DNA of 11,915 nucleotides from a virus (taxonomy: Duplodnaviria > Heunggongvirae > Uroviricota > Caudoviricetes): IMG/VR virus record IMGVR_UViG_2671180012_000001. The stretch is one strand, 5' to 3'. The translations under genes and the position numbers were made by a program. A model generated the notes under the pieces. That model was not told the DNA's origin. It was given only the letters and a program-made list of their open reading frames with translations, and did no database searches. Positions 7,085 to 10,956 of this stretch are shown one piece after another (the stretch's first letter is position 1; each line of letters begins with the position of its first letter).

Positions 7085-8125
7085 ATGGTTGATTTATATT
7101 CGCCTACTCAGCTTGTACAGGTGGTTAATGCTGTAGATGTACAAAAACAACTAAATGCGTTGTTTACCAGTTTGTTTTTTACTCGCTCGGTAATGTTTGA
7201 ATCGCGCGATATTATTCTTGATACAATCGACGATCCAAATATCCCAATTGCAGCGTTTTGTTCTCCTATGGTGGGTAGTAAAGTTTCACGTGACGAAGGG
7301 TACGAATCAAAAACAATTCGTCCAGGCTATATGAAGCCGAAAAGCAGCATTGATCCAAATAAGTTAGCTGTGCGCCCTGCTGGTGTATCACCTGAGCAAT
7401 ACAATGCTTTTGGGGCACGTAATATTAAAGTTAAACAGGCGATTGTAAATCAGGCTAAAGCTATTCGTGCACGTATTGAATGGCTTGCTGTTCAGGCAAT
7501 CACAACGGGGAAAAATATCATTGAGGGCGATGGTATTGAACGTTATGAGCTGGACTGGAATATAAAACCACAAAATATCATCACTCAGTCTGGCGGTACT
7601 GAGTGGTCAGGTAAGGATAAAGAAACTTTTGATCCAAATGATGATATTGAGAGCTACGCAGAATTTAGTGAGGGCGTCACTAATATCATCATTATGGGTG
7701 GTAATGTATGGAAGAAATACCGTTCATTCAGAGCGATAAAAGAGGCTTTGGATACCCGTCGTGGTTCTAATTCCGAACTGGAAACGGCCCTTAAAGACCT
7801 TGGTGATTCGGTGAGTTTTAAAGGGTATATGGGCGATGTTGCGATTGTTGTTTACAGCGGGCGTTATACCGACGAGGACGGAACAGAAAAACATTTCCTT
7901 GATCCTGATTTGATGGTGCTTGGCAATACGGCTCTTCAGGGGATTGTCGCCTATGGCGGTATTCAGGATCCGGAGCTAATCCGAATGGGGCTGACTAAAG
8001 CCGAACTTGCACCGAAAAACTATATTGTGCCTGGTGATCCGGCTATTGAATATGTGCAGACACATTCAGCACCACAGCCAATACCGGCCCGCATCAATCG
8101 TTTTGTTACCGTTCGCATTGGCTAA
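7085..8125 (+). CDS. Major capsid protein, lambda gpE family
   Basis: Translation aligns along its length with lambda E from memory, e.g. ITQSGGTEWSGKDKETFDPNDDIESYA, DTRRGSNSELETALKDLG, YMGDVAIVVYSG, MVLGNT, HSAPQP. Homology begins at MVDLYSPTQL (ATG 7085, GAGG at 7075-7078); the track ORF start at 6872 is an upstream in-frame extension with no homology. Confidence 0.85.
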   Translation: MVDLYSPTQLVQVVNAVDVQKQLNALFTSLFFTRSVMFESRDIILDTIDDPNIPIAAFCSPMVGSKVSRDEGYESKTIRPGYMKPKSSIDPNKLAVRPAGVSPEQYNAFGARNIKVKQAIVNQAKAIRARIEWLAVQAITTGKNIIEGDGIERYELDWNIKPQNIITQSGGTEWSGKDKETFDPNDDIESYAEFSEGVTNIIIMGGNVWKKYRSFRAIKEALDTRRGSNSELETALKDLGDSVSFKGYMGDVAIVVYSGRYTDEDGTEKHFLDPDLMVLGNTALQGIVAYGGIQDPELIRMGLTKAELAPKNYIVPGDPAIEYVQTHSAPQPIPARINRFVTVRIG

Positions 8126-8134
8126 GGGGGAGCA

Positions 8135-8476
8135 ATGGCTACTCATTACACTGAACTCATGGCTGGCACTGAAGCACTGGTGACTACGCTGGGGATATTT
8201 TCAGCTAATAAAGGGGTAATTCCTGCATTTACGCCACTGATGCAGGAAGATGCAACAGGTGCACTGGTGGTATGGGATGGTTCGAGCGTAGGTAAAGCGG
8301 TTTATGTTTCCGCTGTACAAATCGACACAGCGAAAAAAACACAGGCACAGGTTTATAAGACAGGTGTTTTAAATGTTGATGCTCTGAACTGGCCTGAGTC
8401 TGTAAAAGAACTGTCGGCAAAGGTTGCCGCGTTTGTTGGCTCAGGTATTTCTGTTCAGCCGCTGGCTCGTGTGTAA
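8135..8476 (+). CDS. Head decoration protein, lambda gpD family
   Basis: 113-aa ORF with AAGGGGGA RBS. Aligns with lambda D from memory: [20 protein letters not shown] vs [37 protein letters not shown] vs [27 protein letters not shown] vs TAFAGTAISIV. Confidence 0.8.
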   Translation: [113 protein letters not shown]

Positions 8477-8487
8477 AGGGGGATACA

Positions 8488-8871
8488 ATGCAGAATCATT
8501 ACAATGACCTTAAGCCAATTGCCGAAATGATGTATCCGGATCCAGCAGTAGAGGAATTAAAGGCTATTGCTGACAAAATGCGTTTAAGTGAACGCCTTGT
8601 TGATATGAATCAGGTGATGGAACTTACTACCCTTAGCCGTCGCACATTGCTAAACCTTGAGGCTAGTGGAGAGTTCCCGGAGCGTGTGCAGGTTACGGAA
8701 GGGCGTAAGGCCTGGTATTTAAGTGAAGTGATCGACTGGATAAACAATATTCCTCGATCTTCTGAATATTGCCGCGTACCTGTCCCAAAAAAGCCAGATG
8801 CGGCGCTATGCCTCAAGATTGAGCGTGTACGTCGCAATGCACGGGATGGTCGCTATAAGTTGATTGGTTGA
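8488..8871 (+). CDS. HTH DNA-binding protein (AlpA/MerR-like fold) with N-terminal extension; candidate regulatory or packaging-specificity factor
   Basis: 127-aa ORF with AGGGGGA RBS. The segment MELTTLSRRTLLNLEASGEFPERVQVTEGRKAWYLSEVIDWI fits an AlpA-type HTH. It lies directly upstream of the cos site. Confidence 0.6.
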   Translation: MQNHYNDLKPIAEMMYPDPAVEELKAIADKMRLSERLVDMNQVMELTTLSRRTLLNLEASGEFPERVQVTEGRKAWYLSEVIDWINNIPRSSEYCRVPVPKKPDAALCLKIERVRRNARDGRYKLIG

Positions 8872-8880
8872 TGAAATTAG

Positions 8881-8965
8881 GGCCCGTTCTGGCTGGCGGG
8901 TCCTTTCCGGCGATCCGGTAGGCTACGGGGCGGCGACCTCGCGGGTTTTCGCTATTTATGAGCCT
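8881..8965 (+). other. Lambda-type cohesive-end site; cosN 12-nt overhang sequence GGGCGGCGACCT at 8928-8939
   Basis: GGCTACG-GGGCGGCGACCT-CGCGGGTTTTCGCTATTTATGA matches the circularised lambda cos junction as recalled (right end ...GGTTACG, left end GGGCGGCGACCTCGCGGGTTTTCGCTATTTATGAAAA...). The upstream cosQ-side segment (CGGGTCCTTTCCGG.GATCCG) is also similar. Sequence downstream of 8962 (the cosB position) diverges from lambda. Confidence 0.8.
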
Positions 8966-9072
8966 TTTTCGGGTGCTGGTGGTGGTTTTGTTGTTCGCTC
9001 TATCTCTATGAATAAAAAGGAAAAGATAAAGCCAATACACCAACCTGAAACATTACTTAAGTGGGGATATTG

Positions 9073-9614
9073 ATGAAATCGCACCTGATGAACAAAAAAA
9101 ACATGGCGCAAAGCTGCCGTGTAAGTGCGACAGCGTTCGACAAGTGGGGAGTGACTCCCGTTGAACGTAAAGGCCGCGAGGCGTTTTATGATGTTGCCAG
9201 CGTAATAGACAATCGGGTTAGCAATGCAATTAACCAGATTACAGACGACAAAGGCGAGATTGATGATGATGAACTCCTACGAGTCAGGATCAGATTGCTG
9301 ACAGCACAGGCAGAGGCGCAGGAGCTTAAAAACGAGCGCGAACGCGGCGACGTTATTGATACAGCGTTTTGTATATACGTGCTTTCAAAATTGGCGAGTC
9401 AGATTTCTTCAATCATGGACAGCCTGCCGCTTGCCATGACAAGGAAGTTTCCCGACATGAAGCCGTCTATGCTGGATGGACTGAAAAAGAAGTTATCAGA
9501 GCCTGTAACGCATGCGCAAAACTTGACGAAAACATACCGCTGATGCTGTCCGATTATCTGATGGAAACTGCCGGAAACGTACCGGATAAGTTGCAGCCGA
9601 ATAAAGATAAGTAA
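9073..9614 (+). CDS. Terminase small subunit, lambda Nu1-like; full-length reading requires a -1 frame change at the A-run 9484-9490
   Basis: N-terminal frame (track ORF 9061..9543) aligns with lambda Nu1 from memory (LLTAQAEAQELKNERERGDVIDTAFCIYVLSKLASQISSIMDSLPLAMTRKFPD vs LTRAQADAQELKNARDSAEVVETAFCTFVLSRIAGEIASILDGLPLSVQRRFPE). The Nu1-like C-terminus (EKEVIRACNACAKLDENIPLMLSDYLMETAG vs KRDIIKAMNKAAALDELIPGLLSEYIEQSG) is in the -1 frame (track ORF 9369..9614). Start taken at ATG 9073 (GGGGA RBS); the true start could be 9088. Confidence 0.75.
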
Positions 9615-9625
9615 CGTAGTACGCT

Positions 9626-9907
9626 ATGACTGAATCCGAAATACTGCGATTAATCCGCCGTGCTTGTGGAATCAGCAAGCAGCATGACGAACAGGCCACG
9701 CAGCCGGACAGCGTGACCGCAGATAATTATGTGCGTGTAGTGGCTGAGGTGATGCGCCGTGACGGTATTGAGCTTAACGGCGTGGATATGCGCAACATAC
9801 GAACAAGAGTCCTTGAGTTGCTGGCATATCGTCGCCGTTCTCAACAACGGAGGGAGAGCGCGAAAAATACTTACCAGTGGAAGAAGCCGGAACGATTGCG
9901 GCGGTAA
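9626..9907 (+). CDS. Hypothetical basic protein (93 aa)
   Basis: ORF beginning 11 nt after the stop of the Nu1-like C-terminal frame; no clear Shine-Dalgarno; Arg-rich C-terminus (RRRSQQRRESAKNTYQWKKPERLRR). No recognisable homology. Confidence 0.35.
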   Translation: MTESEILRLIRRACGISKQHDEQATQPDSVTADNYVRVVAEVMRRDGIELNGVDMRNIRTRVLELLAYRRRSQQRRESAKNTYQWKKPERLRR

Positions 9908-9922
9908 CTTGCTGATATTCCC

Positions 9923-10132
9923 GATAACGCAAAATTGCGCTGGCTGACTTGTTGCATTGCAAAAAGTTAAGCAGGAAGGCACGGCCTGTAAGATGGGATG
10001 CAGTAAGTAGTTCAAGGCTACCTTGTGCTGGCACGCACAGTTAAGCCGTCGGTGCTGGATATCCCCCACTGGGGGAAAAGCTGGCTACATCCCTCACATC
10101 TGAGGACTGATAACGCGACATTGCGCTGGCTG
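9923..10132. repeat. Pair of 24-bp direct repeats (9923-9946 and 10109-10132) with adjacent TGCA-type palindromes
   Basis: GATAACGCAAAATTGCGCTGGCTG vs GATAACGCGACATTGCGCTGGCTG (22 of 24 identical), 186 bp apart. Nearby palindromes: TTGCATTGCAA (9952-9962), CCCCCACTGGGGG (10063-10075), GTGCAAAATTGCAC (10138-10151). Confidence 0.6.
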
Positions 10133-10158
10133 GCAAAGTGCAAAATTGCACGATGGCC

Positions 10159-10320
10159 TAACCCATTGATTATTTCGAAAACCTGCAATGCAGGAAATCG
10201 GGGAAGTAAGCCTAAGCTATTGATTGTTTCGAAAACCCCCATTGGGGGATGTCGGGAAAGTAAGACTAACCCATTGATTCTTCCACAATCCTCAATTTGA
10301 GGAGGCCGGAACGTCTACAT
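10159..10320. repeat. Three tandem 54-bp repeat units, each with a 13-bp hairpin palindrome of different sequence at the same offset
   Basis: Units start at 10159, 10213 and 10267 (TAACCCATTGATTATTTCGAAAACC / TAAGCTATTGATTGTTTCGAAAACC / TAACCCATTGATTCTTCC...). At offset 23 in each: CCTGCAaTGCAGG (10182-10194), CCCCCAtTGGGGG (10236-10248), CCTCAAtTTGAGG (10290-10302). Confidence 0.65.
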
Positions 10321-10722
10321 AGCTGCATCGCCGTAATGATGATTCAGCCCACCAGCCAAATCAGCACAGCAACGACAGAATAGCCCGACACAGAAAAACC
10401 ACGAATATGGGGTTTTTGTTATGACATGGTCATGATGACCACTCATACAAAACAGGTAAAGCCCACCAGCCTGATTAAAGGTTAACCGGAAAAAAGCCAG
10501 GTATCCAATCTCGATATGGGGATCCCTATATCGACATTAACGCCCACTAAAACTGTGCATATATGCATAGAAAAAGCATCCACCAGCTTTATGACGGATG
10601 CCGCTCATCTTATAAATAATCGTGTATTGCAGTGTGTATTGCGACTCCTTTAAACGATAGGTCTGAGCATTCGTAATGTACTGTTTTTAAATTTTATTTT
10701 TTCCTGTCTTTTCATAAAGGCG

Positions 10723-10946
10723 ATGTATGCCGCCACCATTGAGAGTGAGCTGGATACGCAGTCAGCGATGGATTTTATTCTGGGCGCGAACAGTCAGGAG
10801 CAGCGGGAAAGGCTGACCGGCTGGATTGGTGAAATTGCCGCGTATTACGCCGCAGCGCCGGTCCGGCTGGGAGGCGCAAAAGTACCGCACCTGATGCCGG
10901 GGGACTCACTGAACCTGCAGACGGCTCAGGACACGGATAACGGCTA
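10723..10946 (+). CDS. Hypothetical protein, 3' end truncated by the assembly gap
   Basis: ORF starting at ATG 10723 after an AT-rich, palindrome-containing upstream region and running into the N-run; the track translation beyond 10946 is an artefact of reading across Ns and the antisense tRNA. Confidence 0.3.
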
Positions 10947-10956
10947 NNNNNNNNNN
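10947..10956. other. Assembly gap (run of 10 N); true length is greater than 10 nt
   Basis: N10 in the sequence. The 22 nt needed to finish the adjacent tRNA are absent and the left flank does not match them. Confidence 0.95.

Follow-up and report, generated by a model that had tools for sequence, protein, structure and literature searches.

A lambda-like cosN beside a divergent cosB

The stretch of DNA analysed here, 11,915 nt in length and referred to throughout as the window, comes from IMG/VR virus record IMGVR_UViG_2671180012_000001; its positions 1-10946 match a 10.9-kb element that is a Gram-negative phage-inducible chromosomal island (PICI). This island carries a cos site directly upstream of a gene for a Nu1-family small terminase (terS). 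An earlier note on this DNA had placed the site at 8881-9072, coordinates that exactly span the gap separating terS from the gene before it, and had read it as a signature of switched packaging specificity, with the large terminase (TerL) of a helper cutting a lambda-type cosN that is recognized through the island small terminase (TerS). The features of the site are listed below, with base pairs (bp) numbered from the first base of cosN (window 8928).

8898..8904, + strand: cosQ (GGGTCCT), the packaging-termination element, equivalent to lambda -30..-24 and at equal spacing to cosN
8928..8939, + strand: cosN cohesive end GGGCGGCGACCT, identical to lambda at 12/12 positions and present as a single exact copy in the window
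8940..8962, + strand: segment between cosN and cosB (bp 13-35), of which bp 13-34 (8940-8961) are identical to lambda at 22/22 positions
8976..8990, + strand: R3' (CTGGTGGTGGTTTTG), proposed primary site for the island TerS (bp 49-63); the conserved block extends to 8995
9001..9013, - strand: weak site resembling that of integration host factor (IHF), bp 74-86, in the A/T-rich spacer between R3' and R2' (8991-9032, 69% A+T)
9033..9047, - strand: R2' (CAGGTTGGTGTATTG), inverted R site (bp 106-120), matching R3' at 10/15 positions
9058..9072, + strand: R1' (TAAGTGGGGATATTG), possible third R site (bp 131-145), overlapping the terS ribosome-binding region and the weakest of the three
9073..9543, + strand: island terS, of the Nu1/gp1 family and with an N15-like DNA-binding domain; product shortened to 156 aa in this copy

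Compared without gaps with lambda (NC_001416), and with cosN as the anchor, window 8898-8961 is identical to lambda cos positions -30 to +34 at 60 of 64 bases, with 26 of 30 matching in the left flank (-30 to -1) and unbroken identity from -8 to +34. The claim of the earlier note that cosN and some 20 nt on each side are essentially those of lambda holds, and the match of cosN itself is full rather than partial when made base by base. Such an exact 12-mer is expected by chance about 0.0014 times in 11.9 kb, both strands counted. A second cosN, which the PICI EcCICFT073 possesses, was sought in the window at up to two mismatches, and only a chance-level site inside the primase gene was recovered. 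By transfer from lambda, the cosN nicks are predicted to fall between 8927 and 8928 on the top strand and between 8939 and 8940 on the bottom strand. The assignment of cosQ follows its published definition (PMC4669245).

The cos-terS regions of 15 islands in all were compared, drawn from diverse E. coli and from Enterobacter and Citrobacter islands with TerS proteins about 60% identical, and column conservation was computed over ten islands. Within these ten the cosQ sequence CGGGTCCTT is invariant (10/10 islands; 9/9 columns), and GGGTCCTTT is present at cosQ in 66 of 78 IMG/VR loci. All 13 columns of CGCTATTTATGAG (8950-8962, bp 23-35) are likewise invariant across the ten islands, and bp 23-35 is invariant in 78/78 IMG/VR loci, even in those with a differing right half of cosN. 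That right half is variable among the 78 loci, a kind of variation that lambda-like phages are known to tolerate (PMC4669245). One locus, L002, provides an internal comparison, as the island there lies within a prophage whose own cos is nearly identical to that of the island over cosQ, cosN, and bp 13-34 (63/66) but goes on with lambda R3-I1-R2-R1 and near-identical Nu1 and gpA. The island and its presumed helper thus share the parts of cos that are read by TerL and differ in the part that is read by TerS.

Past bp 35, identity to lambda drops to background until the terS ATG at 9073, which lies 145 nt from cosN bp 1 as against 190 nt in lambda. Conservation of cosB with a known phage was checked by a blastn search of 50,697 phage records, in which the sole aligned stretch was window 8896-8973, matched by lambda-like phages at 85-91% and ending at 8973. 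Comparison across loci nonetheless recovered an ordered set of sites, every one of the 15 islands carrying CWGGTGGTGGTKTTG at bp 49-63 (R3') and an inverted CARGTKGGTGTATTG at bp 106-120 (R2'). R1' matches R2' at 10/15 positions in the window, at 12/15 in O157-type islands (TAAGTTGGTGTATTA), and at 9-12/15 across E. coli lineages; among the 15 islands compared, none was found in those of Enterobacter and Citrobacter. In lambda the corresponding sites are R3 at bp 53-68, I1 at bp 79-91 (- strand), R2 at bp 105-120 (inverted), and R1 at bp 155-170. The coincidence of R3' and R2' with the coordinates of lambda R3 and R2 indicates that layout and spacing have been retained while the code has changed: an R3 at fixed distance is followed by an inverted R2 and by a direct, albeit weak, R1 before the small-terminase gene. 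The description of this region in the earlier note as unrelated to lambda R3-I1-R2-R1 is thus correct for the sequence but not for the arrangement, which preserves the order of R3, spacer, inverted R2, and R1, and its spacing.

Invariant columns over the ten islands are concentrated in the R3' block (bp 51-68; 16/18) and, to a lesser degree, in R2' (8/15), as against 4/15 in bp 36-50 and 7/37 in bp 69-105; R2' matches at 12-15 of 15 positions once the divergent lineage L014/L016 is left out. Both blocks are near-invariant in the 78 IMG/VR loci. Between these loci synonymous divergence has reached saturation (pS 0.8-0.9), and the retention of R3' and R2' across E. coli, Enterobacter, and Citrobacter in spite of this argues that the blocks are under constraint. 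An assignment of window 9010-9026 to lambda R2, suggested by a MAFFT alignment, was rejected, as this segment falls in the poorly conserved spacer (bp 69-105) and 22 bp off lambda R2. The spacer also contains the IHF-like site, which shows three mismatches to WATCAANNNNTTR in the window and one to two in the Enterobacter and Citrobacter relatives, where position (bp 74-86) and strand are unchanged. Inside one locus R3', R2', and R1' are too diverged to be found as repeats and were recovered solely by cross-locus comparison; when R2' or N15 R3 served as the search pattern, with as many as three mismatches allowed, matches remained at chance level.

The island TerS and its DNA-binding domain

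In relatives the island TerS is a protein of 180 aa (intact in loci L001 and L002), and its central and C-terminal regions are homologous to those of lambda Nu1. Pfam Phage_Nu1 (PF07471) matches it at E=3e-24 over residues 66-148 only, identity to Nu1 is about 30% in the N-terminal 60 residues, and the C-terminal tail of the 180-aa relatives is about 43% identical to the Nu1 tail (our own count on the alignment); the 13-residue insert of Nu1 is missing from the island protein. A divergent N-terminus on a conserved core, as the earlier note had described it, is therefore present. The gene is under purifying selection, with dN/dS at about 0.2 overall, 0-0.13 in the DNA-binding domain, and 0.22-0.27 from residue 56 to the end. 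A family profile run against PDB matched lambda TerS 1-98 (6hn7_B) at E=0.006 and gave no match to RppC; phmmer with a single island TerS against PDB sequences returned nothing relevant, and a scan of genome contigs with the TerS protein gave pattern matches, none of which was confirmed as a relative. A low-confidence AlphaFold2 model built on a 17-sequence alignment shows a helix-helix-strand-strand-helix order, as would suit a winged helix. No gpA-like gene was found within 5 kb of terS in 80/80 viral-contig loci, nor in the window, in a search whose positive control worked; the absence of a TerL gene beside terS is as expected for a satellite TerS.

The affinities of the DNA-binding domain lie with phage N15. 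When residues 1-71 were compared by tblastn with all phage records, the best matches were N15 gp1 and another Ravinvirus, followed by Nu1-like terminases of Pseudomonas; residues 5-65 are 52.5% identical to N15 gp1 over 61 residues (E=3e-15), and the putative recognition helix (SATAFDKWGV in the island, SVQAFDKWGV in N15) differs at 2 of 10 positions. The DNA sites show a parallel resemblance. N15 R3 has been reported as GAGGTTGTTGTT at bp 48-59, bp 54-59 being the positions that matter most (PMC4669245), and the island sequence at bp 48-59 (GCTGGTGGTGGT) matches it at 8/12 positions in the same register, while R2' matches it at 10/12 (own base-by-base comparison). Both systems have G/T triplet repeats as R sites at bp 48-59 (Feiss et al., 2015), and the three-R layout of the island resembles that of the Monarch prophage group, which was compared by description only (PMC4669245). 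By its sequence, then, the island cosB is not an orphan but belongs with the G/T-triplet R sites of N15/Monarch style. Neither the helix nor R3 is identical to that of N15, however: the island R3 is (GGT)3 and that of N15 (GTT)3; N15 has a single R3 with a remote rR2, and a TerL of its own; and the N15 cosN departs from lambda at bp 9 and 12, where the island cosN does not. The relationship to N15 is real on these sequence comparisons, which do not demonstrate equal specificity.

Compared with lambda, the R consensus is CAGGTGGTGKTWTTG in the island and CGTTTCCKTTCT in the phage; cosQ, cosN, and bp 13-34 are the same, and the positions of R3, inverted R2, and direct R1 before the small-terminase start correspond, whereas the island has a weak IHF site, a cosB shorter by 45 bp, and no adjacent TerL gene. 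R3' differs from lambda R3 at bp 53, 55, 57-60, and 63 and keeps the T at bp 56. As bp 58 and 59 matter for recognition by Nu1 (PMC4669245; PMC9026076), the differences at these positions suggest that helper Nu1 should not use the island cosB.

Evidence that cosB and TerS go together comes from natural exchanges. In locus L013 (L013 1042-1812), TerS consists of a phage-21-like DNA-binding domain, 30% identical to the island type, on an island-type C-terminal half (87-94% identity to sister islands, with 82-90% aa identity in the upstream gene), and its cosB aligns over its full length with that of phage 21 and relatives, the ATG lying at bp 187, 186 nt from cosN bp 1. The locus constitutes a natural lambda-21-style hybrid inside a satellite. 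Conversely, R3' and R2' are identical in islands that share the DNA-binding domain (88-97%) but differ in having upstream genes of unrelated families (18-25% identity); among these are sister islands in which an unrelated 137-aa gene takes the place of the AlpA-like helix-turn-helix (HTH) gene upstream of the same cosB. Together, these observations indicate that cosB co-varies with the N-terminal domain of TerS and not with the flanking genes. The situation resembles the lambda-21 and lambda-N15hy4 hybrids, in which the TerS N-terminal domain and cosB are exchangeable as a unit while TerL and cosN stay constant, although those were exchanges between phages made or analysed in the laboratory and the unit here resides in a satellite without TerL. 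As an experimental precedent, an N15 DNA-binding domain fused to the lambda TerS C-terminus works with lambda TerL on N15 cosB (PMC4669245).

Packaging model and alternative explanations

We consider it probable, from comparative sequence data, that this is the packaging-initiation site of a PICI that exploits lambda-type helpers, the TerL-read parts of cos having been kept and the small-terminase module being private. The kept parts would be cosQ and cosN together with the next 23 bp on the right, and the private module would consist of R3' (bp 49-63) and the inverted R2' (bp 106-120), separated by an A/T-rich spacer that is probably bent, with R1' (bp 131-145) added in E. coli lineages. From sequence identity, positional equivalence, conservation, co-variation, and gene context we infer binding, TerL recruitment, and cleavage as follows. 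The island Nu1-family TerS, with an N15-type winged-helix N-terminal domain, would bind R3' and R2' as a dimer and, through its C-terminal tail, would recruit helper TerL. TerL would then nick cosN to give lambda-identical 12-nt ends and package island concatemers rightwards, four 10.9-kb units amounting to about 44 kb, roughly a lambda headful, with termination predicted at a downstream cosQ/cosN. The switch of packaging specificity proposed in the earlier note is well supported by comparative evidence, given a resident prophage with lambda-type cosB and near-identical Nu1 around the same island, the conserved footprints, the joint swaps of cosB and DNA-binding domain, and the lack of TerL beside terS in 80 loci. 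That note requires correction on three points: lambda's cosB architecture has been kept, the specificity resembles that of N15, and the window copy of terS is disrupted.

Several observations weigh against this reading. Within the window the R sites are alike at just 9-10 of 14-15 positions; a repeat search of 8890-9080 found no inverted repeats and one chance-level direct pair, and a 14-mer search with R2' at up to three mismatches recovered R2' alone. The IHF-like site is weak in the window copy (three mismatches), and the low confidence of the AlphaFold model (pLDDT 57) leaves sequence homology as the sole basis for the winged-helix fold. In tests of 2018 on two E. coli PICIs that encode TerS, those of strains IHE3034 and 18098, neither was transferred when the resident prophages of the host were induced with mitomycin C (PMC6092414). 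Finally, terS itself is frameshifted in the window by a 1-nt deletion in a run of five A (9479..9483, + strand), which shortens the product to 156 aa and removes the C-terminal 42 residues, those aligned with the TerL-binding tail of Nu1; the intact frame would run to 9614. When the last 30 residues are missing from lambda TerS, its binding to TerL is poor (PMC9026076), and with the tail lost TerL recruitment by the window copy would fail unless the deletion is a sequencing error. Locus L002, 99.9% identical to the window over its island part, carries six A in the run and a 180-aa TerS, and among the matches listed the near-identical complete genomes are all 99.6% identical over 9380-9640, fitting one gap. 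The same contraction of the A-run occurs in two further terS alleles from public assemblies, alleles P0078 and P0085. A programmed -1 frameshift at the run was rejected, the run not being conserved (other members have AAA AAG, AAA AGG, or AAA ATT). The window copy of terS may thus have lost its function; alternatively, as the window is a draft with a scaffold gap, the missing A may be an error of sequencing.

The frameshift would also fit a relic explanation, in which cos would work inefficiently through its lambda-type cosQ/cosN and helper Nu1-gpA, like EcCICFT073 cos plasmids without Rpp, and terS and the divergent region would be captured late-gene debris with no role in specificity. The recurrence of the same contraction in other alleles would fit too, as would the failure to mobilize the TerS-encoding islands of IHE3034 and 18098 and the statement in PMC10111431, citing Fillol-Salom 2018, that PICI late genes such as capsid are dispensable for EcCICFT073 transfer. 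Debris would not, however, be expected to show purifying selection that is strongest in the DNA-binding domain of terS, non-coding R3' and R2' blocks kept across genera at saturated synonymous divergence, or a module found at 827 places in E. coli and present in 772 of 5426 complete genomes of that species (14%), in chromosomal and in prophage-embedded islands alike; moreover, the listed near-identical genomes differ by a single gap, and L001 and L002 have an intact 180-aa terS. We regard the relic explanation as unlikely.

A different alternative arises from comparison with Rpp-type islands. EcCICFT073 keeps cosQ/cosN, and its private cosB is recognized by Rpp and helper TerS acting as a heterodimer (PMC6092414; PMC6739421; PMC9026076), the Rpp proteins (139-154 aa) having a winged-helix DNA-binding domain and no TerL-binding tail (PMC9026076). 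The window island has the same late module, comprising capsid gene, decoration gene, small gene, cos, and specificity gene, and in both islands cosQ, cosN, and bp 13-34 are lambda-identical and the private cosB begins at about bp 35-42; here too cosQ/cosN are like those of the helper and cosB unlike. The late end of EcCICFT073 is 94% identical at the nucleotide level to that of a TerS-type O157 island from the capsid gene to cos bp 42. Past bp 42 a non-homologous cosB and a 144-aa rppA (ATG at bp 102) replace cosB and terS, and homology resumes in the next gene. This arrangement indicates that cosB plus rppA and cosB plus terS are alternative cassettes at one locus, and the site described here is accordingly a TerS-type variant in the same cassette position as EcCICFT073/Rpp. 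The island protein cannot be assigned to Rpp, RppA (L104 2660-3094) showing no BLASTP similarity to island TerS; RppA does match the Nu1 DNA-binding domain, at E=3e-6. The two types differ further in that Rpp lacks a TerL-binding tail and pairs with helper TerS whereas the island encodes a full Nu1-family TerS, 180 aa in relatives, and in that the cosB of EcCICFT073, with the ATG already at bp 102, has one proposed R3 only, in opposite orientation, against two to three R sites and an ATG at bp 146 in the island.

The island protein, perhaps especially in its truncated form, might accordingly act as an Rpp-like adaptor, forming a heterodimer with helper Nu1 in which the mixed dimer reads the island cosB and Nu1 supplies TerL, an arrangement that would block helper packaging. 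The exact rppA cassette position of terS relative to its 94%-identical sister, the (GGT)n core shared by both types of cosB at near-equal distance from cosN, and the length of the truncated TerS (156 aa, close to the 139-154 aa of Rpp and likewise without the TerL-binding tail; PMC9026076) are in keeping with it. The tail of full-length TerS is nevertheless conserved and under selection, at the dN/dS given above for residues 56 to the end, and is similar to the Nu1 tail; RppA and island TerS share no BLASTP similarity, nor does the family profile match RppC in PDB; and the lack of conservation of the A-run in the family argues that the truncation is not programmed. An adaptor role therefore appears quite improbable. 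Least plausible, and very improbable in our estimation, is that the conserved blocks are transcriptional or translational control sites of terS, such as operators of an AlpA-like regulator, rather than terminase sites: an HTH regulator gene lies directly upstream, the two blocks are in inverted orientation, and R1' overlaps the ribosome-binding region, yet the blocks are identical where the upstream gene is unrelated and are replaced when only the TerS DNA-binding domain changes, their positions are within a few bp of lambda R3 and R2, their sequence resembles N15 R3, and a scan of 8400-9700 around cos found no sigma-70-like promoter.

The preferred reading, a private TerS and cosB combined with a borrowed TerL, follows a principle that is already known from the private cosB of PICIs, the satellite TerS of Staphylococcus aureus pathogenicity islands (SaPIs), and the lambda/21/N15 specificity swaps. 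As summarized in PMC6092414, the TerS-S of SaPI1 and SaPIbov1 pairs with helper TerL and directs packaging to a satellite-specific site. The SaPIs share with the present island a satellite-encoded TerS but differ in packaging by headful (pac), in their Gram-positive hosts, in an unrelated TerS family, and in a separate inhibitor (Ppi) of helper TerS, whereas the present site is a cos with shared cosN/cosQ. TerS-encoding Gram-negative PICIs were mentioned, though not characterized, by Fillol-Salom et al. (2018; PMC6092414), and in the searchable literature no description was found of a TerS-type cosB, its N15 affinity, or its cassette relation to Rpp.

Satellites of lambda-like phages move virulence and defence genes, and the mode of packaging sets how far they spread. 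The solution known from E. coli is an adaptor, Rpp, that reprograms the helper small terminase; the site described here points to a second, in which an N15-like small terminase of the island's own is combined with a matching cosB and the helper lends only TerL and the signals for cutting and stopping. With lambda cosB geometry in a different code, it may offer a clean natural substrate for models of how TerS positions TerL at cosN.

The shared (GGT)n core invites a more speculative connection between the two cassette types. The sequence ACCACCACC, a block reported to be invariant in four Rpp PICIs, occupies bp 55-63 of the Rpp-type cosB and is the reverse complement of the TerS-type R3' core, and EcCICFT073 cos1 bp 54-68 (L104 2612-2626) matches, on the bottom strand, the Citrobacter-type R3' CAGGTGGTGGTGTTG at 13/15 positions. 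The core thus lies at near-equal distance from cosN in both types (near bp 51-68) but, unexpectedly, on opposite strands. It is conceivable, though doubtful, that the two types are alleles of one exchangeable "cosB plus reader" cassette sharing an oppositely oriented (GGT)n core at R3. Were this so, Rpp and satellite TerS would read related DNA with opposite subunit geometry, providing a natural experiment on the architectural question, raised by Murialdo and Feiss, of how contact with R3 and anchoring of TerL are divided between the two subunits of the small-terminase dimer, and the TerS variants that repeatedly lack the tail could represent a stage on the way to Rpp-like adaptors.

The element and its surroundings

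The gene content and order of the element are those of a PICI. Pfam identified an integrase, AlpA, Bro-N, a D5/DUF5906 primase, and SSB, followed by a lambda E-type capsid, a D-type decoration protein, a second AlpA-like HTH protein, and the Nu1-family small terminase, giving the order int, alpA, Bro, primase, and late zone. The island thus has its own lambda E-type major capsid (about 7085-8125) and D-type decoration protein (8135-8476), and the surrounding prophage has its own E and D. One further feature, flanking the cos site and outside it, serves as context:

8488..8871, + strand: upstream AlpA-like HTH gene, with matches to Pfam Phage_AlpA and PDB 8c3t

Sequences 98.9-99.9% identical to window 1-10946 are present in 52 complete E. 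coli genomes, in which the element interrupts portal gene B of a lambda-type prophage. An 8-bp repeat, AAGGCGAT, flanks the element (about 10.9 kb) at both junctions in these relatives; it marks attR inside the portal reading frame, and attL is located outside the window, some 200 bp before its first position. A doubled GTGTATTGC motif, at window 10621-10643 and 10718-10725, lies within the island at about 75-95 bp from its right end and probably corresponds to the doubled integrase-site motif noted in helper-embedded PICIs. That organization was described by Tommasini et al. (2023; PMC10111431), and the present island shares with the helper-embedded PICIs (Tommasini, Mageeney & Williams, 2023) the same order of zones and integration in a lambda late gene, the portal gene B being among the reported targets. 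It differs from the prototype 11capE, which lacks terS and has 258 bp of cos in common with its helper at 90%, in possessing terS and in having about 66 bp in common.

The window derives from a draft assembly, in which the 3' fragment of the portal gene is followed, after a run of ten Ns (10947-10956), by an unrelated contig that is 100% identical to the tRNA-Ser/mtfA region of E. coli K-12. The mtfA/tRNA-Ser junction was at first taken for an odd integration site and was rejected as such, being a 10-N scaffold gap and not biological. An Rfam scan of the window returned no family, including for a set of hairpin repeats to the right of terS. These comprise three tandem 54-nt repeats at 10156-10317, each with a hairpin of 5-bp stem, whose stems have wholly different sequences and yet are complementary (CCTGC/GCAGG, CCCCC/GGGGG, and CCTCA/TGAGG), and a further pair of 24-nt repeats with hairpins at 9923-9946 and 10109-10132.

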